Below, one piece after another: positions 23,828 to 56,048 of a stretch of 64,000 bases of DNA (the first letter of the stretch is position 1; each line of letters begins with the position of its first letter). Source of the DNA: a virus; the IMG/VR virus record IMGVR_UViG_3300026487_000009, positions 3,048 to 67,047 of that record; one strand, given 5' to 3'. The position numbers and the translations under genes are program-made. The notes below the pieces were generated by a model that was not told the DNA's origin, searched no databases, and saw nothing but the letters and a program-made list of their open reading frames with translations.

Positions 23828-24390
23828 AAAATTTCAAGGTTCCCCGCGGAGTTCCAACGATTGCCATTAATGGGGCGGTGGACTGGATAGAACGCGCGAG
23901 CTTCTTCTTTACCCTCGATCCTTCTGATGAGAATAAGCGCCGCATGGCCAATCGCCGCCGTGGAACTCAGTATGTTTGCGCCTTACCGGATGGCGCACCG
24001 GATATCCCGGGTGTGCACCGTTTAACGCGCGTAGGCGATCAGACCACACGCGGACCTGAACCTGAGAATCACGGCAGCCCGGAGTGGTGGTTATGGCGCT
24101 GGTCGGCAATGCCGGGGCTGTCGGAAGAGCCAGGCAAGATCCATAGTGGCAATTCGGCATACGGCGCGCTGGGGCTGGCTTACAGCCTCGGATACACCGA
24201 CGTGGCGCTGGTGGGCGTGGATGGCACACAGGAAGCCCGTTATCCGGGGGGCGGGGAGCCAAAGAACCTGTCACACATCGGGCTGCTTTTCGCGTCGGCC
24301 CTGCCGCAGATCCGCGTTGTTTCGTGTGGGCAGTTGTCGAGCATCCCTCAGATGTCCCTTAAAGACTGGCTGGCCAGCACTCAGGAGTAA
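23761..24390 (+). CDS. Second glycosyltransferase-fold protein (P1 PmgP-like)
   Basis: IVGSGPS, IAING, FFTLD and SGNSAYGAL.LAY.LG..VALVGVD; GGAG SD before ATG 23761. Confidence 0.7.
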   Translation: MLPIKKSGKGTRVIIVGSGPSVKNFKVPRGVPTIAINGAVDWIERASFFFTLDPSDENKRRMANRRRGTQYVCALPDGAPDIPGVHRLTRVGDQTTRGPEPENHGSPEWWLWRWSAMPGLSEEPGKIHSGNSAYGALGLAYSLGYTDVALVGVDGTQEARYPGGGEPKNLSHIGLLFASALPQIRVVSCGQLSSIPQMSLKDWLASTQE

Positions 24391-24394
24391 GTGG

Positions 24395-25111
24395 ATGAAA
24401 ATAGCAACGGTGCTGCGCTCGGGAGGGGATTACAACATCAGTCATGTAAAGTGGTTGAAGAACCAGCTGCCTGATGACGCAGACGTGATTTGTTTCAGTG
24501 ATTTCAAATTTACCATTCCCGGCGTGCAGGTCGTGCCGTTGTTACATGACTGGTCCAGATGCAAAGGCTGGTGGGCGAAAATCGAGCTTTTCCGCCCAGA
24601 CATCAAAGAAGATTTTCTTTACCTCGACCTGGATACCGTGATCGTTGGGGACGTATCTGAAATTCTGACTTTTACCTGCGAGCAAATGGTAATGCTGTCG
24701 GACTTTTACCGTCCTGCCAATCTGATGTCGTCGATTATGTGGATACCGCACCAGGTGAAAGAAGAGATCTGGAAAACCTTCTTCTCCGATCCGAAGCACT
24801 ACATCAATCACTGTAAACAGGCTGACTGCTGGGGAGATCAGGGTTTTATACAGCTGGTCATTGGCGATTCGTTGCGCTGGCAGGATCTTTTCCCGGGCTG
24901 GTTCGTGAGTTACAAGGCGCAGGTCGTCAGCCGGGACCAAAGCAAGTGGGCTCACCGGCGTTTCTCAGCTGGTAACGGCTCACTCCCGGATGACGCCCGT
25001 ATAGTGGTTTTCCATGGTCAACCGCGACCGTTCCATGTGATCGAGCCATGGATGCCACCAGCGCCGTTTTGCGACACAAAAGGCTTGCCAAATGCAGGTG
25101 TTGCTTTATGA
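24395..25111 (+). CDS. GT-A fold (GT8-like) glycosyltransferase
   Basis: GWWAKIELF, YLDLD (DxD), GDQGFI and VFHG.PRP. Confidence 0.8.
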   Translation: MKIATVLRSGGDYNISHVKWLKNQLPDDADVICFSDFKFTIPGVQVVPLLHDWSRCKGWWAKIELFRPDIKEDFLYLDLDTVIVGDVSEILTFTCEQMVMLSDFYRPANLMSSIMWIPHQVKEEIWKTFFSDPKHYINHCKQADCWGDQGFIQLVIGDSLRWQDLFPGWFVSYKAQVVSRDQSKWAHRRFSAGNGSLPDDARIVVFHGQPRPFHVIEPWMPPAPFCDTKGLPNAGVAL

Positions 25112-25119
25112 TTTCCGTA

Positions 25120-25138
25120 AAAGTTTAGTGTTTATTGT
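25120..25138 (-). promoter_or_regulatory. Probable C1 operator
   Basis: rc ACAATAAACACTAAACTTT. Confidence 0.65.
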
Positions 25139-25147
25139 GGCGGGTAC

Positions 25148-25375
25148 ATGCAACTCCTAAGAAAACTTTTCGCAGCGCGTTTGTACTACTGGCATTTCAG
25201 CGTGTCATTCAATGGCCGCATGGAGGAGCTGGTGGTGGGCTATCCAGACCGATTGATGACGTCAGCGCGGATGGTTTTCTTGCTGCGGCAGCGGGGCCTG
25301 CCTGATGACGCTGTAATCATCTCATTCTCGTATATGGGAAAGATGACAGAAAACCAAGTAACAAGCCTTGTTTAA
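25148..25375 (+). CDS. Small protein, P1 PmgR-like
   Basis: PD..MT..R and DAVI...SY.G.MT; precedes pmgS. Confidence 0.5.
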   Translation: MQLLRKLFAARLYYWHFSVSFNGRMEELVVGYPDRLMTSARMVFLLRQRGLPDDAVIISFSYMGKMTENQVTSLV

Positions 25376-25390
25376 CATAGAGAAAATACC

Positions 25391-26650
25391 ATGAGTCAAA
25401 TCGAAAATATGCCACAAAACGACGTGAATCTCGGCACGATCGCCTTAGAAGGGATTCAGGGCCTGCAGGCACAACTACGCTCGGCCTTGCGCAGGGTAGC
25501 TGGGGATGATCTCTCCATGCGATTTATCAACAACGCCATCGATAGCGCAGAAACTCTGCTTGCCGACCTGATTATTGAATACAACAGGGATAGCGAAGAA
25601 TTCAACCAGTTGTCCGCTCAACTGGATGACAAAGACACTGCGGTCAGACTGGCGCATCGGCAAATCGAAGAACTGCAGCGCTCTATGGCCGGGGCATCTG
25701 ACGAGGTGCGCGAACAGTTCGAGAAACAGCTTTTTGATGCCGGTGAAAAGGTCAGAGTGCTGGAGCGTGAAAAGCTCGATTTAGCCGGGCGTGTGGCCGA
25801 TATGGAGATCGCCCTTAAAACGACGCGTACTTCAGAGCAAACGATCCGTCGTGAGCTCAAAAGGCTGCAGGACATGGAGCCAGAGAAGAAAATTGAGCAG
25901 CTGGCTAATTATAAAAAAGAAACCCATGAGCTGCGCGCAAAAGTGCGTGATCTGGGCTCCGAGTTGACGCGCGAGCAGCGGGAACGGGTTCGTCTCTCCA
26001 CTGAGGGACAGACAATGGCCCAGGCGTTAGGGGAATTGCGCAACCATAATCTGCTGCTGGCTAACGACGTCAAAAAAATCAATGGAGCAAGCCAGTACGA
26101 CTGGAACTTTGATAATCACGCGGGTGAACCTCGTCGCTTCTGGTTGCACCGCTATGCCTACGGGATCTCAAACAAGCCGGGAATGAACAATGGCATCCCG
26201 AAGATGCTGTACGGCGTAAATTTTAGTTATGTGATTTTCTCCTGCCGCGGTTATGGGATAAACGTACTGCCAAACGAGTGGATGGCGCCGTCCTATAACC
26301 CGTTTGAGGAGTTTGAAGTGGATAAACCTTCTGATATCGAGCAGGTGATGACCAGCATCTTTGAATCAGAGCTGGAGAACGTTTACCCACAGATGATTAA
26401 ACGAGCCATCTGGGCGCGCACCGTCAGTCTGGCCGATGTGCCGGATATGCCGAAAAAAGCCCTGAAACTATTTGAAGGCACCCATTACAAGACGCTTTAC
26501 GACGTTGTTTCACAATCGCCATTGAGATTGCTGCTCATTAAGGGGATCGGGAAAGAACTGGCCGGAACGATCGGTAAAGTGTGCCTCTACGAAGTAAGCC
26601 GGTGGATGGATATTAACGGTGATATCGAGGATATCAGCGTCAAAATGTGA
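25391..26650 (+). CDS. pmgS: PmgS-like coiled-coil protein with C-terminal HhH-like segment
   Basis: RRV..DDL..RF..NA..SAE.L, AYGIS, NEW..P, RA.WA and TL.DVV. Confidence 0.75.
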   Translation: MSQIENMPQNDVNLGTIALEGIQGLQAQLRSALRRVAGDDLSMRFINNAIDSAETLLADLIIEYNRDSEEFNQLSAQLDDKDTAVRLAHRQIEELQRSMAGASDEVREQFEKQLFDAGEKVRVLEREKLDLAGRVADMEIALKTTRTSEQTIRRELKRLQDMEPEKKIEQLANYKKETHELRAKVRDLGSELTREQRERVRLSTEGQTMAQALGELRNHNLLLANDVKKINGASQYDWNFDNHAGEPRRFWLHRYAYGISNKPGMNNGIPKMLYGVNFSYVIFSCRGYGINVLPNEWMAPSYNPFEEFEVDKPSDIEQVMTSIFESELENVYPQMIKRAIWARTVSLADVPDMPKKALKLFEGTHYKTLYDVVSQSPLRLLLIKGIGKELAGTIGKVCLYEVSRWMDINGDIEDISVKM

Positions 26651-26654
26651 ACAC

Positions 26655-26678
26655 AGCCCGGGTTCCCGGGCTTTTTTT
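26655..26678 (+). terminator. Rho-independent terminator
   Basis: AGCCCGGG-TT-CCCGGGCT plus T run. Confidence 0.65.
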
Positions 26679-26697
26679 ATACTCATTCGAGGTAAGT

Positions 26698-26982
26698 ATG
26701 AAGAAATCCCCAAATGGTCTGACGACGTCGGAAATGCTCTTGTGGCTCGAAAAGGAGGCGCAGGATGTAAAGCTAAGCTCAAATGGCCACGATGACGACG
26801 TGCATCTTGTCGTGTATACCAAATCGTACGGTCGCCGGGTTTATACCGGATCGCGAGATGTGGCGATTAAGAGCGCCTATGATTTTATTTCGGCAGACCT
26901 CAAAAGCTACCATGAGCGCGTACGTCAGTATTTTTCTGACCCACTCATTGAGGATCAGCAGCAAGAGACGCAGTCCTCATGA
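26698..26982 (+). CDS. Hypothetical protein
   Basis: GAGG SD; ATGA overlap with next gene. Confidence 0.6.
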   Translation: MKKSPNGLTTSEMLLWLEKEAQDVKLSSNGHDDDVHLVVYTKSYGRRVYTGSRDVAIKSAYDFISADLKSYHERVRQYFSDPLIEDQQQETQSS

Positions 26983-27767
26983 CCTCAGAGCCGTTTATCG
27001 TCATGATACCGGCGCGTTACGGCGCTGGTAGATGCCCAGGAAAAGCACTGGCTGAAATCCAGGGCAGGACGATGATCAGCGGTGTCATAGCCAGCGCGCT
27101 CCGTTCGCTGGCTGCCCGGGTGATCGTCGTAACGGACCATAACGATATCGGTTCAGCAGCAAAAAACACCGGAGCTGAAGTCCTCACCTTCACTGGCAAT
27201 TATAAGAGCGGCACGGACCGGCTGGCCGCCGCCTGCAATATGCTCGGGATTGATGATACTCAGCTGGTGGTCAGTCTTCCCTGTGACATGCCAATGGTTG
27301 ACCCGGTATTACTTAATTTACTGGCACAGGATTACATTCAGAGCGGTTGCGTTGTCGGCACGCTGGGCGAGCTGGTGGAGCGAGACAATTTACATACCCT
27401 GTCAGATCCCACGCAGGTGAAAGTGGTAACGGATGTCTGCGATCGCGCTATTTATTTTTCCCGCGCATCCATCCCCTTTGATCGGAACCAGGCCAGCATC
27501 AAAAATCCGCTGTTGAATGAGCTGTATCTTCGCCATATAGGGATCTACGCCTACCGAACGCACGCTATAAAGCACCTTTCTGCGTTCGGTGTCAGTCCAC
27601 TGGAGGAGATGGAGGATATCGAAGCGTTGCGACCTCTTACCCAGGGGCTAAGCGTTTCCGTTTTAACCGTGCGCAATACAGGCTGCTTTAGCCTCGGAAC
27701 CGCAGGCGCCATCGAGCGTCATAATCAATTGGCATCAGGAGCGAGTAAATGGCCAGCAGAGGCGTAA
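26979..27767 (+). CDS. KdsB (CMP-Kdo synthetase)-like cytidylyltransferase with altered catalytic motifs
   Basis: IPARY...R.PGK.L, SGT.RLA, VKVV.D....YFSR..IP.DR, RH.GIY.YR and SPLE..E..E.LR. Confidence 0.85.
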
Positions 27768-28234
27768 ACAAGGTAATTCTCGTCGGGAACCTGGGTAAGG
27801 ATCCCGAAATACGTTACAAGCCGGGCGGCGGTGGGGCTATTGCCACGCTGACACTGGCGACGTCCGAATCCTGGCGCGATAAAGCGACCGGTGAGATGAA
27901 GGAGCAGACCGAATGGCACCGCGTTGTGCTGTTTGGCAAACTGGCCGAAGTGGCCGGTGAATATCTGCGTAAAGGCTCCCAGGTCTATATCGAAGGCCAG
28001 CTGCGTACTCGTAAATGGACCGATCAGTCCGGCGCAGAAAAATACACCACTGAAGTGGTGGTGAACGTCGGCGGCACCATGCAGATGCTGGGTGGCCGTC
28101 AGGGCGGTGGCGCATCAGCAGGTAACGATCAGCACCAGGGCGGCTGGGGCCAGGCAAACCAACCTCAGCAGCAGTCCACCCCGGCGCAGTCTAATGAGCC
28201 GCCAATGGACTTTGACGACGACATACCCTTTTAG
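27749..28234 (+). CDS. ssb: Single-stranded DNA-binding protein
   Basis: [16 protein letters not shown]...; C-terminal DFDDDIPF. Confidence 0.98.
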
Positions 28235-28257
28235 CGCATACCGGTTAAGAAACCCTG

Positions 28258-28284
28258 AAAGCCCCGCAAGCCGGGGCTTTTTTA
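28258..28284 (+). terminator. Rho-independent terminator
   Basis: AAAGCCCCG-CAAGC-CGGGGCTTT plus T run. Confidence 0.75.
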
Positions 28285-28357
28285 TGCGTGAATTTCATCT
28301 CAGCCCCTACGCAGGAGATCGCAACTGGCAATATTTGGCTGTATATTACGCATAATA

Positions 28358-28376
28358 AAAGTTTAGTGTTTAGTGG
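28358..28376 (-). promoter_or_regulatory. Probable C1 operator
   Basis: rc CCACTAAACACTAAACTTT. Confidence 0.6.
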
Positions 28377-28383
28377 TGATCCA

Positions 28384-28692
28384 ATGGCAGAGAAAACTTT
28401 AACCATGGCGCAGCTGTCGGCCATGCATGACGAAGAAATCAGGCAGGCAATGGCTCAGCATCAGACACGAATGCGTCTGATGGCAGCCCGGCACCGTTCT
28501 GAACTGATGGCCATCGCTCTTGCTGGTAAAGAGGGGGACTTTATCCAGACGCTTGCCGGCATGGTCAAAGCTCCTCTTGAGGTTATCGCGCAGGTTGAAG
28601 GCGGCGGGCCGGAGCAGGGGGATGCTTTATCACTAATCCGGCTGCTGGAGCAGGTCATGCAGGATAATTTTGAAGTCAGTGCTGGCTGCTGA
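28384..28692 (+). CDS. Hypothetical helical protein
   Basis: ATG directly after an operator copy. Confidence 0.55.
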   Translation: MAEKTLTMAQLSAMHDEEIRQAMAQHQTRMRLMAARHRSELMAIALAGKEGDFIQTLAGMVKAPLEVIAQVEGGGPEQGDALSLIRLLEQVMQDNFEVSAGC

Positions 28693-28814
28693 GCGCAGCA
28701 GCGACACCGTTAACAACCTACAGAATTTGGAAACACTAAATAAAACGTTTTGCATTGCAGAAACTGCAAAACCAGTTGCAAAGGAAATGAATAAGGGCTT
28801 ATTATCCCTTTCGA

Positions 28815-28833
28815 GCAACAAACACTAAATAAA
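28815..28833 (+). promoter_or_regulatory. Probable C1 operator (second weaker copy at 28726-28744)
   Basis: GCAACAAACACTAAATAAA upstream of the long early cassette operon. Confidence 0.6.
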
Positions 28834-28866
28834 ATTTGTTTAGTAACGTCAATCTGAGAACACATT

Positions 28867-29604
28867 ATGACAAAGCAACCGACTGGCGGGGCATTAATGG
28901 CCCGCGCTACCCCAGCAGATATTGAGCGCTCCTCGGCGGTAACCCGCGCCGCTCAGCGTCTTCAGTACAGCTGGTGGACGCCTGCAAAGGCTGCCCCTTC
29001 GATTGATTCGATAAGTGATATCCCGCGTGAATGGCGCCTGTTCTTTGGTCGCTGTGTACAACTGATCGTCGATAACGGCTCTTACAACCGTATCAACGAT
29101 GGCTATCTTTCTCTTTTGTCTGCGACCGACCCGGACAAAGAATACCTGGCATTGCACCCCTCATTGCGTGAATCGCTGAGCCTTTCGTCGCTTGTTCCTG
29201 TTTACGAGTCAGCGCTTCAGGAAGCGAACCAAAAAATCTCGCAATTGTACGACATCATTTTTCAGGAAATCCCTGGCCTTTCCCCGTCGCTTAAAGGCGC
29301 CCCGGATCTTTCCGCTGAATATGAAAACGAACTGCGCAGCGAACTGCGCGAGCTGCTTAACGAGCATATGGTCAGCGCCCTGGCTGTCGATGAGTCTGCG
29401 ACCGACTTACCAGAATCGTCCTGGCTTAAGCAGACATGGCCAGCGGAAGTAAGCGTCGTTTTTTCCGCCGTTCCTGGCGCGGATGCGCTGAGCGAGCATC
29501 ACAAACATCGCCTCAATAGCCACATAAACCGCATGTTGCTTGAGCGCATGCCCACCGCCAGCATCATAAATGCGGCCACCAGCCTGATAAAAGGGATGGA
29601 ATAA
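28867..29604 (+). CDS. Hypothetical phage protein
   Basis: 245-aa ORF heading the operon. Confidence 0.65.
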   Translation: MTKQPTGGALMARATPADIERSSAVTRAAQRLQYSWWTPAKAAPSIDSISDIPREWRLFFGRCVQLIVDNGSYNRINDGYLSLLSATDPDKEYLALHPSLRESLSLSSLVPVYESALQEANQKISQLYDIIFQEIPGLSPSLKGAPDLSAEYENELRSELRELLNEHMVSALAVDESATDLPESSWLKQTWPAEVSVVFSAVPGADALSEHHKHRLNSHINRMLLERMPTASIINAATSLIKGME

Positions 29605-29608
29605 GACC

Positions 29609-31651
29609 ATGAAAACGAGAGAAATCATTGTTGATAATTTTGCTGGTGGCGGTGGCGCATCAACGGGCATTGAACTGGCTACGGGGCGTAGCGTGCATAT
29701 CGCTATCAACCACGATACCAACGCGATCGCAATGCACTCGACTAACCACCCTGAAACCGTGCACTACTGCGAGTCAGTGTTCGATATTAACCCTGTCCAG
29801 GCATGTGCTGGTAAGCCGGTTGGCCTGGCCTGGTTTTCGCCAGACTGCCGCCATTTTTCTAAAGCAAAAGGCGGTAAGCCGGTTGAGAAAGAGATCCGCG
29901 GTCTGGCATGGATCGTTATCCGTTGGGCTATGGCTGTTCGCCCACGCGTAATGATGCTTGAGAACGTTGAGGAATTTAAGACATGGGGGCCGCTTATCAC
30001 AACCGGCGCCAGCCCTGAGTTGCCAGCCGAGGAGTTACCTAATTTTTGTGGTCCCGCCTGGCCGGGATACTGCTTCCCTGATCCTGAGCGCGCCGGTGAA
30101 ACCTTTAATGCGTTCGTCGGCATGCTGTCCGCAGGGATAAGCGCTGATCACCCGGCGCTGCAGGAGTGTTGCGATTTTTTAGAAATCAGCACAGATAGCA
30201 TCCAGGCGCAGCAGCTGGTGAACGGGCTCGGTTACAAGGTCGATTTTCGTGAGCTGCGCGCGTGTGACTATGGCACTCCAACGATTCGTAAGCGCTTCTT
30301 TATGGTCATGCGCTGCGACAACCAGCCGATCGTCTGGCCAGCTGTAACCCACGGCGATCCTAAAACAGCTGCCGTTAAAAGTGGCCTGCTACAGCCATGG
30401 CGCACCGCGGCGGAATGTATCGACTGGTCAATCATCGCGCCTTCTATCTTTGGCCGCAAAAAGGCATTGGCGGAGAACACGCTTAAACGCATTGCTCGCG
30501 GCATTCAGCGCTTCGTTATTGATAGCGACACGCCATTCATCGTGAAGTGCAACCACACAGGTGCTGGTTATGACGTTTTCCGTGGGCAGGATATTCAGGA
30601 ACCACTGCAAACCATCACGAAGAAACATGGTTACGCGATCGCGGTACCGCATCTGACAAAATTCCGCACCGGCGCGACCGGACAGCCAGTTACTGAACCG
30701 GTACCAACGGTAACTGCTGGCGCGTCAGCGCGCCCAGGCGGGAATGGGCATGCGCTGGGCATTGTAGATGCCACGCTGGCACCTTTCATGGCCGGTAACG
30801 GCGGCAGCGAGTACCAGGCGAAGCCGCGCCCACTTGATAAACCCGTTCATACCATCCTGAAAGAGTCTCGGGCATGTGTTGTTGCGCCAGTTATTGCCCG
30901 GCAGTTCGGGGCCAGCATTGGCCACCGCGCTGACGAGCCGAGCGCGACGATCACCGCGGGCGGCGGCGGGAAGAGTCAGCTTATTACTCCGACGCTCATC
31001 CAGGTTGGTTATGGCGAGCGACCAGGGCAGGCGCCCCGGGTTCCCGGGCTGGATAAGCCGCTGGGCACCGTTGTTGCTGGTGGTGGTAAGCATGCGGTCA
31101 TTGGCGCTTTTCTGGCGAAGCACTATGGCGGGAATTATCAGGGCGCCGGGGTGGGCATGGATGAGCCTATGCATTCCGTGACGACGGTAGATCACCACGC
31201 CGCAGTAACGTCACATCTGGTCATGCTTCGCGGCACCTGCCGGGACGGACGGGTGGTAGATGCTCCGGCGCCAGGATTAACCGCTGGTGGCCTGCATGTA
31301 GGAAGCGTCGAAGCCAGTCTTGCAACTGATGGGTATGACGAGCAACGCGCAGCGCAGACGCTGGCATTTCTGCGCCAATACTGCGGCGAGGATTCTGACG
31401 GGCTGGTGACTATAGATGGCGTGGTGTACCGCATTGTCGATATCGGCATGCGCATGCTGCAGCCCAAAGAACTCTATCGGGCCCAGGGTTTCCCGGACTG
31501 GTACATCATCGATCGCGATTTCCGCGGCACCAAATACGCAAAAGACAAGCAAGTGGCGCGTTGTGGCAATGCCGTCCCTCCGCAGCTGGTTGAGGCACTC
31601 GTCAGAGCCAACCTCCCGGATATGTGCCAGCTGACCGATCAGGTTGCATAA
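29609..31651 (+). CDS. DNA (cytosine-5) methyltransferase with long repetitive variable region
   Basis: DNFAGGGG (I), FSPDC (IV), ENV (VI), T.RKRFF (VIII) and CGNAV (X); repeated P..TVTAG units. Confidence 0.92.
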   Translation: MKTREIIVDNFAGGGGASTGIELATGRSVHIAINHDTNAIAMHSTNHPETVHYCESVFDINPVQACAGKPVGLAWFSPDCRHFSKAKGGKPVEKEIRGLAWIVIRWAMAVRPRVMMLENVEEFKTWGPLITTGASPELPAEELPNFCGPAWPGYCFPDPERAGETFNAFVGMLSAGISADHPALQECCDFLEISTDSIQAQQLVNGLGYKVDFRELRACDYGTPTIRKRFFMVMRCDNQPIVWPAVTHGDPKTAAVKSGLLQPWRTAAECIDWSIIAPSIFGRKKALAENTLKRIARGIQRFVIDSDTPFIVKCNHTGAGYDVFRGQDIQEPLQTITKKHGYAIAVPHLTKFRTGATGQPVTEPVPTVTAGASARPGGNGHALGIVDATLAPFMAGNGGSEYQAKPRPLDKPVHTILKESRACVVAPVIARQFGASIGHRADEPSATITAGGGGKSQLITPTLIQVGYGERPGQAPRVPGLDKPLGTVVAGGGKHAVIGAFLAKHYGGNYQGAGVGMDEPMHSVTTVDHHAAVTSHLVMLRGTCRDGRVVDAPAPGLTAGGLHVGSVEASLATDGYDEQRAAQTLAFLRQYCGEDSDGLVTIDGVVYRIVDIGMRMLQPKELYRAQGFPDWYIIDRDFRGTKYAKDKQVARCGNAVPPQLVEALVRANLPDMCQLTDQVA

Positions 31652-31665
31652 CGGGGAATGACAAG

Positions 31666-32322
31666 ATGAAAAAGCCATTAAGCGATCGCTTCTACATGAT
31701 GTGCCTGCGGGAAACCGTGGGCAGTAATGCCTCATTCCATCGTCAGGACGGCAAGGGTTACAGCACCAACGTCAGCGAGGCACATGTTTATACGCTGGCC
31801 GAAGCGCAACGGGACTGGGAACTAGGCCGTGAAATCGATCAGCCGGTTTCCGCCGATGCTGTCGATGCGCTGACGGTATTTCACGTTGACCATCAGCACA
31901 TCCCAGGCGAAAGCGTGATAGAGCCGTGCTGCACTGAGTATGTCGCTTTTCTCAAGGGCGAATGGAACGGTAACGACGTGTACTGGTTATCGGATCTGTT
32001 GCCAACCGATGATTTCAGCAAAGCCCGGGTATTCAGCGAACCGGTCACTCAAGAGCGCAATCTTGTCTGGCTGCCCCGCGCGCTGGCTGAGGCCAAAAAA
32101 CGCCCGACGTTCAATATCAACCTGCTGAATCCCCGCCAGATGATCCAGGGCGCAGGCCTTCGAGTTCCTGACTGGTTAAAGAAACAGAGAAGGCGCAAGG
32201 CACCCAGCGATAAGGTCCGTTGGAACTGTCCGCACTGCGGAAGAATTACCTGGCAGTACAACCCTTACGATTTTGAAGGGTGTAACGACATCACCTGCGA
32301 GGGCTGGAGGCGCCCATGGTGA
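31666..32322 (+). CDS. Hypothetical phage protein with C-terminal Zn ribbon
   Basis: CPHC...C...C; GY.TN..EAHVYT. Confidence 0.7.
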   Translation: MKKPLSDRFYMMCLRETVGSNASFHRQDGKGYSTNVSEAHVYTLAEAQRDWELGREIDQPVSADAVDALTVFHVDHQHIPGESVIEPCCTEYVAFLKGEWNGNDVYWLSDLLPTDDFSKARVFSEPVTQERNLVWLPRALAEAKKRPTFNINLLNPRQMIQGAGLRVPDWLKKQRRRKAPSDKVRWNCPHCGRITWQYNPYDFEGCNDITCEGWRRPW

Positions 32323-32678
32323 GTTCCAGCGAGCAAATGGATAAAGACCAGCAGGCTGCGCTGCACCGCCAGCTGGTTCGCCTCGGAGACATGATTGGTG
32401 ATGGGCTGGCTGATGAGCCTGGCGGGCGCTGGATCCGCCAGGAGTATCGACGAGTCATGAGGGCTTTAGGGCATGAGGTGCCGCGGCGCCGTCGGCCACC
32501 AGATCCACAAATGACCGAGCAGATAAACACCAGAATGAGCCAGCGTATCACAGAAGTTAAATGCCCTGTCTGCCAGACCCTCAGCCTTAAGCAATCCAGA
32601 TCGGGATCCATGAGGGCAAATTGTCAGAGTTGTGGGCGAAGTATCCAGTTACTCAGGAAAGGCAGGGCAAAAAAATGA
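32316..32678 (+). CDS. Zn-ribbon protein (possibly P1 PmgV-like)
   Basis: RQLVRLGDM.GDGL..EPGG.WI; CPVC...CQSC. Confidence 0.65.
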   Translation: MVSSSEQMDKDQQAALHRQLVRLGDMIGDGLADEPGGRWIRQEYRRVMRALGHEVPRRRRPPDPQMTEQINTRMSQRITEVKCPVCQTLSLKQSRSGSMRANCQSCGRSIQLLRKGRAKK

Positions 32679-33046
32679 CCGAACAGAGACTTACGATATC
32701 AGCGCTACAGGATATGCAAGCCATCATGGCCGCCGCTCAACATCCACACGTCGCTCAAGCGATCGGTGAGCTGATCACCCTGCGTGAACTGGAAGAGCGC
32801 ATAGAGGCGGTAATGAAGCCAGATTGCCCGGGGTTTGAGTCTGCGTGCAGAGCACTGTGGGATCGTGAACCGCATCATCTCCTTGCCCGTCACGGTTATC
32901 CAGTGGATTTCGATTCCCAACCGGCGGCCATAAAAGCCGGACTTAAACGCCAGGTTATGACGGTGCTGAGGACAATTTCCGCAGAGGTGAAAGGTGGTGA
33001 ACTGGCTGAAATCTATCTTAAGCAACAACCCGGAGCGAAATCATGA
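32675..33046 (+). CDS. Hypothetical protein
   Basis: ATGA-coupled in operon. Confidence 0.6.
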   Translation: MTEQRLTISALQDMQAIMAAAQHPHVAQAIGELITLRELEERIEAVMKPDCPGFESACRALWDREPHHLLARHGYPVDFDSQPAAIKAGLKRQVMTVLRTISAEVKGGELAEIYLKQQPGAKS

Positions 33047-33246
33047 GCAAAGTTAAAACCCATACCGGCATCGTCGTAACCAAAGACGGCGATAAAAAAG
33101 TGAAGCTGCATGAGACGCCGACGACCTGGTGTGCAGGCCCACGAGAAACCTACCGCAAAGAAGATGGTCGCCGCAGCGGGGCACCGATGACCGCCCGCCG
33201 CCTGAAGCTGGCCACCATCAAACCCATTGCCGGTGATAACGCATGA
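33043..33246 (+). CDS. Small phage hypothetical protein
   Basis: ATGA-coupled, GGAG SD. Confidence 0.65.
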   Translation: MSKVKTHTGIVVTKDGDKKVKLHETPTTWCAGPRETYRKEDGRRSGAPMTARRLKLATIKPIAGDNA

Positions 33247-33482
33247 TCACCGGTCGCTATGTCCTGTATCTGACCTGCGATTGCCGTGACTGCGCCGAGC
33301 TGAAGGCGCTGGCTACCGAGATCGGGGTTGGCTCGCTGGTAAAGCCAAAGCTGGAAGTGTTTGAAAGCACGTCTCGCACCGCAGCACACGAAAAAGCCAT
33401 CGAAGCGGGCTGGCAAATCAGCAAAAACCGTGAACGCGCAACCGCGCCGGGCCATATCAGAGCAAGAAGGAAAAAATCATGA
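33243..33482 (+). CDS. Small Cys-containing hypothetical protein
   Basis: CDC..C; ATGA-coupled. Confidence 0.6.
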   Translation: MITGRYVLYLTCDCRDCAELKALATEIGVGSLVKPKLEVFESTSRTAAHEKAIEAGWQISKNRERATAPGHIRARRKKS

Positions 33483-34075
33483 CCCAATTAAAAAACGAAC
33501 GCCTTGAACTCATCCGTGACGTTACGGTTTCCCCTGAGGTAAGGGCAATGGCATGTGAGCTGCTGGAGTTGCGTGCCCAAAATGCAAAGCTGGTGGCGGA
33601 GAGCGCGGCCCTGAAATCAGGCTGCTCGTTTTTCTCATACGGCTCTGAGCACAATTTCGAATGGCATAAAACGGCAGAGGAAGCGATTGAATCAGCAGAG
33701 GGGGCCATTGCCGACTATCGCGGCGAGGCCTGCGATGGCTGGAGTGAAGAGGTAGACAGCGTTTGCTGGGGTTTAATCATACAGACCGCCACAAAAGTTG
33801 GCGAGCGCCCGCGCACAGAAGATGACAGCTGCGATCCGGCGATCGCTACGGTTTGCGATTACGCCCTGTTGCCAAATATCGATTATGCCGAGGCTGGTAC
33901 TTTCTTTGCGGCAGTGCAGGCTCAGGGGGTGGAGAGGTTCGCGAAGCACAACGATGAATGGGCCGAGCATTATGAAAAGCAAGGCGCTCGCGATGGAAGT
34001 GCGGATCGCCGTCGGAGCATCGCTAACGACGCTCATCGTTTTGCCGCCAGACTTCGCCAGGAGGAAGCCCTGTGA
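33479..34075 (+). CDS. Ead/Eaa-like early protein
   Basis: L..ERLE..EV.AMA.ELL..R; C-terminal V.AQG...FA..LRQE. Confidence 0.6.
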   Translation: MTQLKNERLELIRDVTVSPEVRAMACELLELRAQNAKLVAESAALKSGCSFFSYGSEHNFEWHKTAEEAIESAEGAIADYRGEACDGWSEEVDSVCWGLIIQTATKVGERPRTEDDSCDPAIATVCDYALLPNIDYAEAGTFFAAVQAQGVERFAKHNDEWAEHYEKQGARDGSADRRRSIANDAHRFAARLRQEEAL

Positions 34076-48345: not shown

Positions 48346-49828
48346 GGTAATCAAATCGGCAGTAACAGATCCGCGCTGGCTGGATATGGTGGTGAAGTAC
48401 CGTTACGACTGGGTGACGGCCATTGAAGTGCTCTTCGGTCGCGAGCTGACCTGGCAGCAGATGCTGGTGGTCCAGGAGGCGCAGGAAACGGGTAACTGGG
48501 TATCGGTTACATCCGGGCACGGTACCGGGAAATCTGACGTCACCGGCGCCATGATCCTCTGTTTCCAGATGTTCTACCCGGGCGCCCGTACCATCATCGT
48601 GGCCAACAAAATAAAACAGGTCATGACCGGCGTTTTCAAATACATGAAAATGCACTGGGCAACAGCCTGCAAGCGCTTTCCATGGCTCGCTGAATACTTT
48701 GTACTGACAGATACCTGCTTTTACGAGATCACCAACAAAGGTGTCTGGGAAGTGGTGCCGAAGGGTTTCCGCCTGGGCAACGAAGAAGCACTAGCCGGTG
48801 AGCACGCAGAGCACCTGTGGTATATCGTCGATGAGGCCTCCGGCGTCAGCGATAAGGCATTTGGTATCATTGAGGGGGCGCTGACGCAGGAAGATAACCG
48901 GCTGATGCTGATCTCCCAGCCGACGCGTCCGAGCGGGCGCTTTTACGATTCGCATCACAGCCTGGCGAAAGGCCCGCACAACCCGAAAGGGCTGTTTACC
49001 TCGATCATGCTGAATTCTGAGGAATCGCCACTGGTCACCCTGAAGGCGATCCGGCAGTTCCTGGCAAAATACGGCGGGCGTAATAACCCGGAATATCAGA
49101 TTAAGGTGCTGGGGCGGTTCCCCAAAACCACCAGCGATTATCTACTGGGGCGAGATGAATGCGAGAGCGCCCAGAGGCGCAAGGTACTGCTCCCGAAAGG
49201 CTGGGGCTGGGTGGCCTGCTGCGACGTGGGGAACGGGCGAGACAAGTCCATATTAAGTATTTTCCGGGTGAGCGGCAGCGGCCTGACGCGGCGAGTTGTG
49301 CCTTATAAGGTATACGAAATGGATACCACGATCACGCCGACGAAGTTCGCTGACTTCATTTACGCTAAATGTGACCCTTCTGTATTCCCGAACATCACGA
49401 TAGTAGTCGATGGTGACGGCGTCGGCTCTGCAACAGCTGACAAACTCTATGAGAATTACGGGATCGACGTGCAGCGCATTCGCTGGGGCTTCCCAATGCA
49501 CAGCAGAAGCGACCGCAAGCGCTTTGTGAACCAGCGTGCCTACGCGAACATCATGGCGCAGTTCGCCATTCGCCAGGGAAGGATGCGCCTTGACCGGGAT
49601 GATAAAACGGTCGAGCAGGCATCGAAGATCCCAATCCTGCTGAATGAGCACGGGCAATGGCTGGTTATGAAGAAAGAAGTGATGCGGCAGAAGCTAAACA
49701 TCAAGTCGCCGGACCGGTGGGATACATATTGCTTTGCCATGCTGGCAAACTACGTTCCGGCGAATGAGGTTCTTAGTCAGGATGGCATGCATGAAAGGGA
49801 CGAAGCGCTGGCGCTGCTGGCGAGTTAA
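48335..49828 (+). CDS. pacB: Terminase large subunit PacB
   Basis: [19 protein letters not shown] and SPD.WD.YCFAML. Confidence 0.96.
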
Positions 49829-50661
49829 CTCCCTTCTCGCTTTGATGATGCGGTGCCTGCAACGGCATCCTTCATCATGCGCTTCTGTCGGCTCTTTCGT
49901 TCTGATGCTGCTCTTAACTGGCGTTTATTTTTTTCACGATATTCCGCCAGGCGATCGCGAACCTTTTCCACCTCTTCGACCAGATACAGCTTCGTGTCTG
50001 GCCACATCGCCGTTGGTATGCCCTCAATCATGTCATAAGGGCTGGTGGATTCGCGCTCACGCGTGGGTTTCGTAGAAAGTCTCAGCTGGTCGTTATTCAC
50101 GATAAACAACCCATGGGAAGAGACGCGCTCCAGCTCCAGCTCGGTGCTGCCCTCATAAGCGATATTGGCGATCGTATCTTTGAACCCCTCACGGCGCATA
50201 TACATCCGCGCATCGCCCGGGAAAGTTGATAGCAACTCAATTTCCTTATGCAGCTGCGCACACAGCTCATCGCATTCAGGCTTTGCCCGCGACCGGCGGA
50301 TCTTCGCCTGCATGGCCTCAATCACTTTCGATACCGGCCAGTTACGAACGGTAACCGCATCAAGCTCGTACACACGCACTCGCGTGGCACCAGCGATCAT
50401 TTTTGGATAGGGCTTAAATACCTGAGGTGGAATATGCAGATCGGGGAACTCTTCCAGCTTCTCTGCGTAATCAACCCATTTTTGAATTTTGGCGCTGTAT
50501 GTAGAATGCTCGTCCGGCTGCAACAGCACAACAGGGCGAAAAACTTCGCCGTACCGGCTTGTAATTTTATATTCAGCTCGATGAAGTGCCTCATCAAGGA
50601 ATTCCCTTCGAAAGGTCATGAATTCCAGATACAGGCGTTCCGCGAGGTTGTAGTCAGTCAT
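49825..50661 (-). CDS. c1: Primary repressor C1
   Basis: LY.EF..FR, RPVV.L, KW...A..LE..PDL.IP and WP..K.Y; convergent on pacB as in P1. Confidence 0.88.
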
Positions 50662-50716
50662 GTTTTTTCTACCCTGCATGAAGAACGGTATGTAAGTGAG
50701 CGATGACAATGTATAA

Positions 50717-50735
50717 AAAATATAGTGTTTTTTAA
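50717..50735 (-). promoter_or_regulatory. Degenerate operator upstream of c1
   Basis: rc TTAAAAAACACTATATTTT. Confidence 0.35.
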
Positions 50736-50824
50736 AGCAGTGCACGCCCTTTCAGGGGAGAAAGAGTAAAAAAAGCGCGATCGACCTCGCAGAAAAGTAA
50801 GCCGCGCCTAACTGGGGGGAGAGA

Positions 50825-51398: not shown

Positions 51399-51432
51399 TC
51401 AACTTTATATAATTCCCATTATGTATAGTTGA
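51399..51432. other. Candidate lox-type site (13-8-13)
   Basis: TCAACTTTATATA-ATTCCCAT-TATGTATAGTTGA; arms 11/13 inverted; intergenic between c1 and cre. Confidence 0.75.
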
Positions 51433-51492: not shown

Positions 51493-51816
51493 TCAGTGAC
51501 TATTAGCGAACGTACTCTGTTCAGTTTTGTGAAGGTAAATTTCTGTCGCTTTCTCACGGCCAGCATCGGTGAGCGAGAATGCCAGTTGCAGACTCTGGTT
51601 GCGGAACTTTTTAAGGTGACCGGACATCACCAGTTTTCGGCAGGACAAATTGTAGTTGTTCCGGTGCGTGGTAAAACCCTGGGTGTTGTCATTGATCATC
51701 TTCAGCAGCCGGGCACCAGGAACTGGCCCGGTCATGCCTTTCAATTCCAGGGCGTACAAAAGGAAAAGCGTATTTTTTTGAATTTCAGAGAAACGCTGGG
51801 CGGGTTTGGTTGCCAT
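51493..51816 (-). CDS. Winged-helix protein
   Basis: QK..LF.LYA.E, L..MIN, SCRKL and LTDAGRE.A.EIY. Confidence 0.7.
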   Translation of the reverse strand: MATKPAQRFSEIQKNTLFLLYALELKGMTGPVPGARLLKMINDNTQGFTTHRNNYNLSCRKLVMSGHLKKFRNQSLQLAFSLTDAGREKATEIYLHKTEQSTFANSH

Positions 51817-52086: not shown

Positions 52087-52134
52087 TTGACTCACAGATC
52101 GTCAACGGTGTAGATTCAATAAACACTAAACATT
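52087..52134 (+). promoter_or_regulatory. Sigma70 promoter with overlapping operator
   Basis: TTGACT-18-TAGATT 52087-52116; TCAATAAACACTAAACATT 52116-52134. Confidence 0.75.
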
Positions 52135-52144
52135 TAGTTACAGC

Positions 52145-53362
52145 CACAACCCTTCCGAGGGTGCAACAGAAAAGCGCGTTTGGTCTGAAAAGTTAAGCGC
52201 CCTTTTCGTTGTAGCGCGGTGGCTCCTACGCTTCAGCCGGGTGACGTTTCCCGATAGCCGTCTGCGTCCACTGCAATAGTGTGGGCGCACCCGTAAGGCC
52301 ATTGGATTTTCGGTAAAGGCATTTTCACCGCCAGCGCCGAACGACAGCGTGTTGGGCATGCATGCGCCAGTGGCCTTTCGGGTGTGAGTAAAAGTTCACG
52401 GTGCAAACGTGACGCAAGACTGGCGAGATTGCTTTTTCCTCTGAGGACGCCAGCGGCCAGGTTGACCAGTCGCCTGAGTGGCCGCGCCGGGTAAGCACCG
52501 GCAACTGCAGGACATTGCGGCTTCTTTGAGAAGCGCCGGACGCGTAACCGGCTGAAATAAAAACTGAGGTGACAGCTGGAGAGACAGCACCACAACCAAA
52601 GAGCGCGGGCGTGAAAAACTGTACCTACAGGCGGCGGAATTACGGTTCCCGGCCAAGCCGCATAGCTGAGGGGATCGCTCTTTTTGATTGTGGTGAATGC
52701 ACAGGCTGATGTGCAGCGGACTTTTAATCCGTGCGGGTACTGGCACAACCAGTCCGAAAGCCGGAGATCGGCACCGGCCACCACAAGCAGTAAAGCCCAG
52801 ACGATATCTGAGTGGCTTAAAAAACAGATGGGAGCTGGTGGAAACCCAGCACACAACGGAGTGAATCATTCTTGCCTCTGGTCCGGTTTCGCGACTGGTG
52901 GGGGCGGGTAGCCACACAAGCCGCAGCGCGAAGCGGCCCGAGTGGAGTTAAGCGCGGGGAACCTTATCGGGGAAGTGAAACCCTGGGGGGATGATTCACC
53001 CCGTTGTGGAGAATTGCAGTTGAAAAGACAACCAGAAGATCAGCATCTGGCCCATAACCACCTGTCACCCACTTCACTGGGTGTCGCCGGACGAAAGTAA
53101 CCGGCAAAGCCCATTGCTATTATCACCAAAACTTCCATGAATTGCTGTGTGTAGACGTTGCCCATCCCGTGATGGGCTTTTTTTCTGAATATTTTGAGCT
53201 CTGAGCAGTAGCTCCCTGACAACGGAGCGCACAACCGAAAGCCCGGTCGCGACAAGGTTTTCGGTTGTGGTAATGCACCTAGCGGATGTGACGTTTGATG
53301 ATGTATTGAAAGAGTGGACAGACGTCGGGGCTTGCCCCAGGTGGAGGCACCACCGCCACAAC
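52145..53362 (+). ncRNA. Array of interlocking structured RNA units
   Basis: No credible ORF; repeated CACAAC/GTTGTG closing stems, each with a T-arm-like hairpin at its 3' side. Confidence 0.7.
53160..53184 (+). terminator. Rho-independent terminator/attenuator inside the RNA array
   Basis: GCCCATC-CCGT-GATGGGC plus T7. Confidence 0.75.
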
Positions 53363-53448
53363 ATAACCACAGGCACGATCGATAAACGGTGTCCTGGCGT
53401 TTAATGCCAATTCACGCAAAGGCAGACGAACTGCCAGAAGGTGAGCCA

Positions 53449-53649
53449 ATGAGTTATTCACGTTGTACCTACTGCGGCTCAACGCTGCACACCGTAGCGA
53501 ATTGCCCAAAAACATGGGGAGGTTCAGCCCGCCGTGCGAACCTGCGCTGCGGTTACTGCGGCAAGTCTGGCCACAATTCTAATGCCTGCCCGTCTAATGC
53601 AAGCAGCGGGAACCGTCGTCGTCTGAATGATGATTACTATCTCGATTAA
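53449..53649 (+). CDS. Double CCHC zinc-knuckle protein
   Basis: CTYCGSTLHTVANC and CGYCGKSGHNSNAC (CX2CX4HX4C twice); Arg-rich. Confidence 0.85.
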   Translation: MSYSRCTYCGSTLHTVANCPKTWGGSARRANLRCGYCGKSGHNSNACPSNASSGNRRRLNDDYYLD

Positions 53650-53660
53650 GGGTCATAACT

Positions 53661-53954
53661 ATGAGTGAAGCAATTCCCCAAGATGGCAGCACCGTCAAAG
53701 GCTACCGCACGTTAACACCAGGCGACATTGAGCGCATGAACCGCCTGAAGGACGTTAGTCGTCACTTTTGCAGTCTTCTCGATACCGAGCGCGAGGAGCT
53801 GATGGCTGCACGCAATGGCCCAGCACTGTTAAGCACAGAGCAGGCGCGCGAGATTGATGACGCCCTGCGCTGCCTGTCGGTCGCACGCACAAAAATGCAG
53901 GAAGCCTGTATGTGGGGCTGTCGTGCTATTGCGCGGCCTGACGCTGATTGTTAG
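53661..53954 (+). CDS. acb2: Acb2/T4 Vs.4-family cyclic-nucleotide sponge
   Basis: KGYR.L....I..MN..K and A.TK.QEA.MW.CRA.A.P. Confidence 0.8.
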   Translation: MSEAIPQDGSTVKGYRTLTPGDIERMNRLKDVSRHFCSLLDTEREELMAARNGPALLSTEQAREIDDALRCLSVARTKMQEACMWGCRAIARPDADC

Positions 53955-54003
53955 CCGGTAAGCACCCGGCACCACGCGTTTTCCAACTACCAGGGGCACT
54001 AAA

Positions 54004-54444
54004 ATGCAGCAATATGTGAGCACTAAGATCGTCAATGGCACGCCTATGACGCGTCAGGAGTACATCAATTTACGCGGTTGGACGCTGCCAGAAAACGAGA
54101 ATGGCGCAGATGAGGGCTATCTCGTCGAGTATCACGATGGTGGCCAGCCTAATACCGACAGCCACAAAGGCTATATCAGCTGGAGTCCAAAAGACGTTTT
54201 TGAGCGTGCCTCTCTCCCGCTCGGCAATATTGAAGGTCTTGCTCCGCACCACCAGCGTATGCTGGCCGAACGTGCGCAGTTATGCGATCGCATTACCAAG
54301 CTAAACGGCTTCATTGGTACGCGTCAGTTTCTGGATCTCGAACCGTTAGATCAATCCCGCTTGCAGTCGCAACTAAATGTTATGGCACATTATCGGCAGG
54401 AACTGGATGAGCGTTTATTTGCGCTGAAAAACGAACCAGCCTGA
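54004..54444 (+). CDS. Two-domain phage protein, putative sponge fusion
   Basis: N-terminal Y..TK...GYLVEY...YISWSPKDVFERA; C-terminal H.QRM..E..L..RI.KL..FI...RL..Q...M..Y...L.ERL. Confidence 0.7.
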   Translation: MQQYVSTKIVNGTPMTRQEYINLRGWTLPENENGADEGYLVEYHDGGQPNTDSHKGYISWSPKDVFERASLPLGNIEGLAPHHQRMLAERAQLCDRITKLNGFIGTRQFLDLEPLDQSRLQSQLNVMAHYRQELDERLFALKNEPA

Positions 54445-54472
54445 TCGGTAGGCGGGCACAAGTCAGCAATCA

Positions 54473-54548
54473 GGCCCCTTAACTCAGCGGTGAGAGTAAG
54501 CCCCTCATAAGGGCCGAGTCGCCGGTTCGAATCCGGCAGGGGCCACCA
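54473..54548 (+). tRNA. trnI: tRNA-Ile2 (CAT, lysidine type)
   Basis: GGCCCCT/AGGGGCC acceptor, CTCATAA loop, GGTTCGAATCC, encoded CCA; ileX-like. Confidence 0.9.
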
Positions 54549-54577
54549 TTTCACGTATGTTTTCAACGCCTATATTT

Positions 54578-54604
54578 AAGGCCACCTTCGCCGGTGGCCT
54601 TTTT
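54578..54604 (+). terminator. Rho-independent terminator
   Basis: AAGGCCACC-TTCGCC-GGTGGCCTT plus T run. Confidence 0.75.
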
Positions 54605-54621
54605 GTTATCTCAAATAGATA

Positions 54622-54640
54622 ATGACAAACACTAAATATT
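54622..54640 (+). promoter_or_regulatory. Probable C1 operator
   Basis: ATGACAAACACTAAATATT upstream of the HTH-cre unit. Confidence 0.55.
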
Positions 54641-54695
54641 TACTTATTATTTGCCGGGTGTTATCCAAAATAGATAACCCCGCAAGGAGAGCTGA

Positions 54696-54998: not shown

Positions 54999-56048
54999 AT
55001 GAACAAGGCTTTGCCCGCCTCCCCTACCCCCACCAGCAGCGTTTTGGTGCTGCCGGACGATGAAAGGATCGATGCAGATGTTAAACGCAACCTGGCGGCG
55101 CTGGTGCGCGATAAAAACGCCTTTGCGGATAACACATGGTCAAGCTTTGAGTCTGTCATAAGCTTGTGGGCGCGCTGGTGTGCCGATAAGAAACTCCAGT
55201 GGCTCCCGATCGAAGCTGAATGCATGCGCGAGTATCTGATGGAGATGCACACAAACGGGCTGTCTGTCGCCACCGTTCGCCAGCACTACTCCATGATGTG
55301 CAAACTGCACAGGCATGCCGGGCTCCCTTCCCTCGTTGATAATCCCGCCGTCAATCTGGCCATGAAGAATATCACCCGCACCGCCGTTCAGGGTGGCGAA
55401 CGGACCGGGCAGGCGATCCCTTTCCGTTTGCGCGACCTCCACCAGCTGGCGCAGGCATACGGCATGTCTAAGGACCTGGCGGATAAGCGAGACCTGGCGT
55501 TTCTTTCCGTGGCCTATAACACGCTGTTGCGTATTTCGGAGTTAAGCCGCGTGACGCTGCGGGACGTCGAAAACGGGCCAGACGGACGCTATGTGCTGCG
55601 TATTGGTTACACTAAAACGACGCTCACCCCTGACGGCGTGGTGCGTACGCTGAGTAAAGACGTTTCAAGGAGGCTGAAAAACTGGATCGATGCTTCCGGC
55701 ATCACCGACCAGGATCAATACATTTTCTGTCCGGTAGACCGCTGGGGTAAGCCACGTCTTAAAGCCAAATCCCCCTTAACGAATGCTGCGATGGAGAAGA
55801 TTTTCTCACGCGCCTGGCGGATGATCCGCGGCCTGCCGGGCGAGCCTGATGATAAGGGCCGGTATGCGGTCTGGACGGGCCATAGTGCCCGGGTAGGCGC
55901 AGCACAGGATATGACGGCGTCGGGGAGTTCCCTGGCGAACGTCATGAAGCAAGGCGGCTGGAAACGCGTCGATATGGTGATGCGCTACATCCGCAACCTG
56001 GAAGATGCAGACAATGATCTCAACAGGATGTTAGAGGGCGACAGGTAG
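54999..56048 (+). CDS. cre: Cre-family tyrosine recombinase
   Basis: AYNTLLRI.E, TKT, GHSARVGAA.DM, GGW and MRYIRNL; all catalytic residues present. Confidence 0.96.
   Translation: MNKALPASPTPTSSVLVLPDDERIDADVKRNLAALVRDKNAFADNTWSSFESVISLWARWCADKKLQWLPIEAECMREYLMEMHTNGLSVATVRQHYSMMCKLHRHAGLPSLVDNPAVNLAMKNITRTAVQGGERTGQAIPFRLRDLHQLAQAYGMSKDLADKRDLAFLSVAYNTLLRISELSRVTLRDVENGPDGRYVLRIGYTKTTLTPDGVVRTLSKDVSRRLKNWIDASGITDQDQYIFCPVDRWGKPRLKAKSPLTNAAMEKIFSRAWRMIRGLPGEPDDKGRYAVWTGHSARVGAAQDMTASGSSLANVMKQGGWKRVDMVMRYIRNLEDADNDLNRMLEGDR

Follow-up and report, generated by a model that had tools for sequence, protein, structure and literature searches.

The region between the lox-like site and the cre gene of a P1-like phage-plasmid carries a composite unit which, judged from its sequence, is best read as a variant of a known, poorly characterised P1-family design, the ban operon, moved to the lox-cre gap and fitted with a different cargo. 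The DNA analysed, referred to here as the window, is a stretch of 64,000 nucleotides (nt) from IMG/VR viral record IMGVR_UViG_3300026487_000009 (positions 3,048 to 67,047). The record is 72.7 kb long and about 72% complete, and it is that of a P1-like phage-plasmid. The unit extends from 52087 to 54604 of the window, and its order on the plus strand is a sigma-70-like promoter, a C1-type operator, some 1.3 kb of structured non-coding RNA, a double CCHC gene, Acb2, a gene for a Sequestin-domain protein, tRNA-Ile2(CAU) and a terminator. An earlier note on this DNA had listed the same parts, all on the plus strand, and each of them was found where it had been placed. As a composite design the operon is not novel, since its parts follow the order seen in the Op72/ban operon of P1 and some of its cassette sequence recurs there. 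The unit is probably this phage's version of a P1 ban-type early operon, repressed by C1, in which an RNA leader with partial termination would be followed by read-through into the sponge genes and the tRNA. Its elements are listed below, with lengths in nt, base pairs (bp) or amino acids (aa).

52087-52116, plus strand: sigma-70-like promoter, TTGACT-18 nt-TAGATT, matching 9 of 12 consensus positions.
52121-52140, plus strand: putative C1-type operator, a 20-mer directly after the -10 hexamer, with core ACACTAAAYWTTTA.
52142-52226, plus strand: first hairpin cassette, a CAAC...GTTG hairpin within an AGCCAC/GTGGCT stem, read from the sequence (CACAAC starts at 52145).
52397-52504, plus strand: conserved RNA segment, with 85% identity to P1-like plasmids of Enterobacter and E. 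coli.
52588-52697, plus strand: cassette M1, a variable tip on a ~19-bp basal stem (CACAAC...GATTGTG), from a consensus fold.
52794-52855, plus strand: M2, two hairpins and an invariant A-rich linker, one copy in the window (92 bits).
52848-53012, plus strand: cassette M3, with an 18-bp basal stem and a three-hairpin tip (inverted repeat I1).
53013-53060, plus strand: small conserved hairpin module (CCAGAAGATCAGCATCTGG).
53139-53187, plus strand: copy of RprA in its processed 3′ form, closed by an intrinsic terminator with its stem at 53160-53177 and a run of seven T.
53228-53271, plus strand: CACAAC/GTTGTG hairpin past the internal terminator (inverted repeat I2).
53338-53390, plus strand: last conserved RNA segment ahead of the first gene.
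53449-53649, plus strand: 66-aa protein with two CCHC zinc knuckles (two exact CX2CX4HX4C motifs).
53661-53954, plus strand: Acb2-family cyclic-nucleotide sponge of 97 aa (PF24729, E 2e-17; phrog_717).
54004-54444, plus strand: 146-aa two-domain protein, a beta-rich N-domain and a C-terminal Sequestin helical hairpin (PF21825, E 2e-14).
54473-54548, plus strand: tRNA-Ile2, anticodon CAU, with an encoded CCA end.
54578-54611, plus strand: unit terminator, a 9-bp stem (54578-54601) followed by a T-rich tail.

The likeness to P1 extends to both design and sequence. The P1 ban operon (68651-72659 of NC_005856) is arranged as Op72/Pban, a 'dicF-like region' with a terminator, trnA, trnT, tciABC, trnI (tRNA-Ile2) and ban. 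A search of the RNA array of the window against P1 gave matches at positions 68800-69850, and comparison with the ban leader revealed one 28-nt stretch that is exact and others that are 85-96% identical. The segment 52456-52489 is 85% identical to P1 68800-68833, which is part of the annotated 'dicF-like region'. The two units have in common a C1 operator (putative here) at a sigma-70 promoter, a non-coding leader with a terminator resembling that of a small RNA (sRNA), CACAAC/GTTGTG cassettes, accessory genes and a distal tRNA-Ile2. They differ in location, which is the lox-cre interval here and the region between dmt and ban in P1, and in the sRNA-like part, which is RprA-like here and dicF-like in P1. 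They also differ in cargo, with CCHC, Acb2 and Sequestin-domain genes here and tciABC in P1, where the operon is under C1/Bof control. M2 is present here and absent from the P1 ban leader, whereas tRNA-Asn, tRNA-Thr and ban are missing from the unit here, which ends in a terminator of its own.

Related loci vary in a similar manner. One E. coli/Enterobacter plasmid type carries the array, tRNA-Ile and then Tad2, an 86-kb contig carries the array, a Sequestin-type gene and then a tRNA, and an E. coli plasmid carries the array, tRNA-Arg, tRNA-Ile and then a Sequestin-type gene. These arrangements appear to support a common scaffold on which the cargo changes. In P1, plus-strand CACAAC...GTTGTG hairpin cassettes are also seen at 69040-70200, around and after trnA and trnT, and one of them has a tRNA-like T-arm. 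Because such plus-strand cassettes overlap both plp and upl, these two minus-strand open reading frames (ORFs) of P1 may be mis-annotations.

The array itself is a mosaic, each module of which is common to different, often unrelated phages. M1 has about 85% identity to DNA without annotation directly after tRNA-Arg in Acinetobacter phages, and M3 recurs at 91% identity in two P1-like plasmids and in one IMG/VR contig, where two of its pairs show compensatory changes. The CCAGAAGATCAGCATCTGG module is common to the P1 ban leader (23 nt at 96%) and to other phage leaders. Within the 53338-53390 segment, one 25-mer is exact in SopranoGao-type phages, and 53357-53390 is 86% identical to the P1 ban leader. 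Many of the modules are closed by CACAAC...GTTGTG; 8 of the 33 copies of these hexamers in the window fall within this 1.2 kb, and around M2 in other phages the hexamers show an enrichment of about 7-fold. Cassettes of this class are also found in the P1 ban leader and in ordinary early-left leaders that adjoin replication and recombination genes. The basal stems of M1 and M3, at 18-19 bp, match the size of RNase III substrates.

Several other identities for the array were considered and set aside. ORFs on both strands of 52140-53440 have an implausible composition and no Pfam match, and there is no protein similarity to P1 Plp, which led to rejection of the array as protein-coding. That M1 or M3 copies an RNA gene of the E. 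coli core genome was rejected, as both have just rare prophage or plasmid matches, and the lack of GGA enrichment in the array led to rejection of a CsrB-like sponge. A search of the window and 16 related loci against Rfam returned no family for the modules, apart from tRNA and a sub-threshold RprA. Two arrays elsewhere show further arrangements of these modules. A wastewater contig joins M2 to the 53001-53054 module via a different 68-nt insert, which replaces the 143-nt M3 (window 52857-53001), and this shows cassette swapping exactly at CACAAC/GTTGTG borders. In the related array of the E. coli CH468 plasmid (locus L137, 3159-3287), RefSeq annotates a 129-nt 'tRNA-Met', an unusually long tRNA-like gene, right after the M3 cassette.

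The RNA modules are real, and M2, which shows strong covariation, is the best supported of them. At least 119 IMG/VR contigs and 104 phage records contain the M2 core, among them virulent N4-like phages, in which it follows a tRNA gene. Over 59 distinct sequences, pairing holds at 98.7% of pair positions and compensatory changes occur in 5 of the 13 pairs; the observed level of covariation was reached by no shuffle. The stems covary around invariant loops and an invariant A-rich linker, and the presence of 12 U-G pairs indicates that the plus strand is the folded strand. A coding frame across M2 was rejected, as the covarying positions give non-synonymous changes and one alignment column contains an indel. 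M2 has no match in Rfam. In the N4-like Escherichia phage Bp4 (locus L037, 1500-2280), the 700 nt between two annotated tRNAs hold M2 together with several tRNA-like elements, which possess T-arm sequences and CCA ends and are not called by ARAGORN or Rfam.

Downstream of M2, an internal terminator had been proposed at 53160. The terminator is present, and what has changed is its interpretation, as it belongs to a copy of processed RprA. The Rfam model for RprA (RF00034) matches 53085-53187 with 46.9 bits, below its cut-off of 70. Over the last ~57 nt, identity to chromosomal E. coli rprA in its 3′ half is about 85%; the 5′ half is unrelated. Given the sub-threshold score and the unrelated 5′ half, the element is called a copy of the processed 3′ part rather than a member of RprA. 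RprAproc is a natural processed form that comprises the last 47 nt of RprA and is active alone (PMC9262595). In both RNAs a single-stranded GAAUUGCUGUGUGUAG is followed by a terminator hairpin and a U-tract, and the internal terminator accordingly reads as the 3′ end of the RprAproc copy. The phage copy differs from RprA in that it has no promoter of its own and is embedded in an operon leader. Across 120 distinct phage contexts, the RprA-type seed with its terminator lies downstream of M2 in 43 and upstream in 0, and in 29 contexts the terminator is found exactly 158 nt past M2.

This fixed distance also bears on the main alternative, wherein the array or M2 is a cis-acting leader that directs protein-free processive antitermination past the RprA-type terminator, like HK022 put, and the RNAs do not act in trans. 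We regard this rival as rather improbable. In temperate phages (L015, L036), M2 sits between a repressor-controlled early promoter and the first terminator, a position similar to that of putL and putR in HK022, and like these it folds into two hairpins over about 60-70 nt. Invariant loops and linker combined with covarying stems would be expected of an RNA that binds a conserved host machine, and the protein genes of the unit have no promoter-like site of their own. However, M2 has no similarity to the HK022 immunity region (putL/putR), and nothing longer than 13 nt is common to it and HK022 24000-34000. Furthermore, put consists of two abutting stems without a long linker, whereas M2 has a 16-nt A-rich linker; M2 as a homologue of HK022 put was therefore rejected by sequence and by architecture. 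The distribution of M2 also fits poorly with antitermination, as the motif also occurs after lysis genes and, in virulent N4-like phages, within tRNA clusters. The P1 ban leader does not have M2, yet ban lies beyond the terminator of that leader. Lastly, terminator-like sites are rarer downstream of M2 than upstream, according to a simple count whose criteria miss short U-tracts.

Whether the leader and the genes behind it belong together depends on the start of the unit. A sigma-70 consensus scan, which detects sigma-70-type sites only, found 52087-52116 to be the sole promoter-like site on the plus strand of 52087-54621, and consensus and core scans found no further promoter-like or operator-like site inside 52117-54604. 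The claim of the earlier note that one promoter with a C1-type operator heads the unit thus holds, with no second promoter-like site inside. The 20-mer at 52121-52140 recurs at 54627-54646. Its core ACACTAAAYWTTTA has 18 copies scattered in the window, compared with 0.7 expected by chance (~25-fold), and further operator copies of this type precede the pair formed by a helix-turn-helix (HTH) gene and cre (54629) and the next gene (56366). The 20-mer is read as the putative C1 operator of this phage because the core is enriched and dispersed like the C1 operators of P1, resembles part of the P1 C1 operator sequence, and is accompanied by a C1 homologue encoded nearby. The intergenic gaps in the protein and tRNA half are 12, 50 and 29 nt. 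With tight gene spacing on one strand and no internal promoter or operator site, the simplest reading is a single repressor-controlled transcription unit, in which 52087-54604 would be co-transcribed under the control of C1.

It is unlikely that the region instead consists of two independent units, namely a small-RNA operon that ends at 53177 and a set of genes with the tRNA that is transcribed without attenuation from a weak or non-canonical promoter missed by the scan. The internal terminator is strong, 260 nt separate it from the first gene, and a consensus scan sees sigma-70-type sites only, all of which would suit such a division. Nevertheless, no promoter-like or operator-like site occurs in 53178-53448, and this spacer is itself made up of conserved RNA cassettes common to P1 and other phages. 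P1 and other phages also place genes behind such a terminator.

The protein half of the unit had been predicted to encode two sponges, and this is confirmed in that the Acb2 and PF21825 matches both lie above the Pfam cut-offs. The 97-aa protein matches PF24729 (Acb2/Tad1 hairpin) with 63.4 bits against a cut-off of 27, covering profile positions 1-58 of 58. It also matches T4 Vs.4 (7UQ2, E 1.5e-8) and PaMx33 Acb2 (8H2J, E 6e-7). The tyrosine of the KGY motif, Y15, and the lysine 15 residues later, K30, are conserved and aligned with those of the solved proteins; in PaMx33 Acb2, Y11 and K26 are the residues that contact the ligand. As an Acb2, the protein would form a hexamer able to bind cyclic di- and trinucleotides. 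The protein therefore resembles the known Acb2 proteins (T4 Vs.4; PaMx33 p26) in its full-length match and in the N-terminal Tyr and Lys that are kept. It differs from them in its low identity to the solved proteins and in its place in a P1-like phage-plasmid, where it would be under repressor control.

In the 146-aa protein, residues 81-138 match PF21825 with 53.8 bits (cut-off 24.8), and the family is carried by all of its ten best Atlas clusters. PF21825 was formerly crAss001_48 and is named Sequestin in Pfam 38.1. An AlphaFold2 model (pLDDT 95) features a beta-rich N-domain at residues 1-75 and helices at 81-104 and 114-142. Structure searches with this model returned generic helical hairpins only and no informative match for the N-domain, because the helical hairpin filled the match lists. 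The protein shares with the Sequestin family the C-terminal hairpin of 60 residues and differs in its additional beta-rich N-domain of 75 residues. The two-domain form has 793 homologues, and some other proteins have the N-domain fused to Tad2/DUF2829 instead. When 13 proteins of PF21825 were tested, 10 blocked type I Thoeris, and a purified member binds 3′cADPR (bioRxiv 10.1101/2025.07.12.664507). The two sponge genes are new members of known families, and it is credible that the protein half serves as anti-CBASS and anti-Thoeris cargo. Genes homologous to the N-domain alone are found in two N4-like phage contigs (L091 7436-7630 and L109 12940-13143), 1-2 kb downstream of M2, and another N-domain-only homologue is found at L135 4259-4453. 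In L052, a gene matching residues 51-144 lies about 200 nt from M2.

The zinc-knuckle protein is a weaker match to its family, with 19.9 bits for Pfam zf-CCHC (PF00098), where the cut-off is 20.8. In other phages its homologues (~80% identity) have an HNH endonuclease gene on one side and the small terminase (terS) gene on the other. A role as a dedicated chaperone of the array is unsupported, as these neighbours are not RNA arrays.

The earlier note had proposed an anti-defence island that mixes RNA and protein effectors. The protein half of this proposal is upheld by the two sponge families, while the RNA half finds no direct support. That the RNA modules are trans-acting anti-defence effectors, acting as decoys or inhibitors of RNA-guided or tRNA-targeting defences and co-regulated with the sponges, is accordingly the least probable of the alternatives and distinctly doubtful: the modules share an operon with two sponge genes, recur in arrays beside Tad2- and Sequestin-type genes in several lineages and are conserved among phages that infect different hosts, up to Acinetobacter, but none of them resembles a known anti-defence RNA or matches Rfam, their cassette class is shared with the P1 ban leader and with early-left leaders near replication and recombination genes, and the sole identifiable module copies a host regulatory sRNA rather than a defence component.

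The tRNA at 54473-54548 is labelled tRNA-Met by ARAGORN, a call that derives from its CAT anticodon. Several features indicate that it is tRNA-Ile2, as had been suggested. In nearly every E. coli genome its best matches (79% full-length identity) carry the annotation tRNA-Ile, it can be aligned with P1 trnI, an annotated tRNA-Ile2, and its acceptor stem (GGCCCCU/AGGGGCC) contains the pairs C4-G69 and C5-G68. These are the acceptor pairs of tRNA-Ile2 that TilS uses, and C34 would be modified to lysidine. AUA accounts for 16% of the Ile codons in the window's long ORFs, and codon supply would therefore be a sufficient explanation for the tRNA. Since the P1 ban operon has the same order of parts, tRNA-Ile2 can be considered an inherited feature of this operon type. 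Nothing points to an anti-PARIS or anti-PrrC role.

Taken together, these features suggest how the unit may operate. In the lysogen, the C1 homologue would bind the operator that abuts the -10 hexamer and keep the unit off. Upon infection or induction, host RNA polymerase would produce an early burst of transcription, making first the ~1.3 kb modular folded RNA with its CACAAC/GUUGUG cassettes, M2 and the 3′ copy of RprA. Many transcripts would stop at the RprA-type terminator, giving a precursor that is probably cut at the long basal stems of 18-20 bp into small stable RNAs, one of which may be an Hfq-type regulator that imitates RprA. Polymerases that read through would express the zinc-knuckle protein, Acb2, the Sequestin-domain protein and tRNA-Ile2. 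Acb2 would then sequester CBASS-type cyclic nucleotides and the Sequestin-domain protein the Thoeris signal 3′cADPR, while tRNA-Ile2 would supply AUA decoding.

Several observations weigh against this account. The promoter matches just 9 of 12 consensus positions, and as many promoter-like sites as were seen are expected by chance in the scanned region. The internal terminator looks strong, with a 7-bp GC-rich stem and seven U, which means that read-through may be low unless a helper is involved. No match to the ban helicase (PF03796) was seen in the 72.7 kb of this record, itself about 72% complete, and a terminator follows the tRNA. Similarity of the small HTH gene at the cra position to P1 Cra is undetectable. 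None of the RNA runs on record contains this phage, and RNA-labelled wastewater assemblies (four runs, with short mosaic contigs) hold single modules only and may be DNA.

The surroundings of the unit include the following features.

49825-50745, minus strand: C1 repressor homologue (NF041318, E 2.5e-38).
51399-51432: lox-like inverted repeat.
54999-56048: Cre homologue, 40% identical to P1 Cre.

In P1, cra is about 200 bp from lox and cre is 436 bp from it. Here, the HTH gene at the cra position is ~3.3 kb from lox and cre is ~3.6 kb from it, in agreement with the earlier observation that the gap between lox and cre is far wider than in P1. A 107-aa gene (51493-51816, minus strand) lies between the lox-like site and the promoter of the unit, from which it diverges; its only match is phrog_19460, and it belongs to DNA that is absent from P1 at the same place. 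At the other end of the unit, the 19-nt palindrome TGTTATCYMAAATAGATAA is present in two copies (54604-54622 and 54659-54677). These flank the promoter and C1-type operator ahead of the HTH gene and cre, and are possibly operators for the HTH protein.

In a broader and more tentative proposal, which we hold to be possible rather than probable, the CACAAC/GUUGUG cassettes and M2 would constitute a widespread, uncatalogued phage small-RNA system. Its RNAs would be made as one early precursor and cut at the basal stems, and their targets in trans would be conserved host machinery, for example RNA polymerase, Hfq-dependent regulation or RNA-based immunity; P1-like phages would use the RNA operon as a landing pad for anti-defence genes. 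At the least, M2 and the phage copy of processed RprA add to the phage RNAs that have no catalogue entry, and P1-like plasmids, being easy to manipulate, should be a good system in which to test both. The comparison also ties the unit to the old and poorly understood leader of the P1 ban operon, where plp and upl overlap apparent plus-strand RNA cassettes. Ultimately, immune-signal sponges (Acb2 and Sequestin here, Tad2 in relatives) appear to ride on P1-like phage-plasmids inside a repressor-controlled early RNA and tRNA operon, a location in which they would be produced immediately upon infection or induction and remain silent in the plasmid state.

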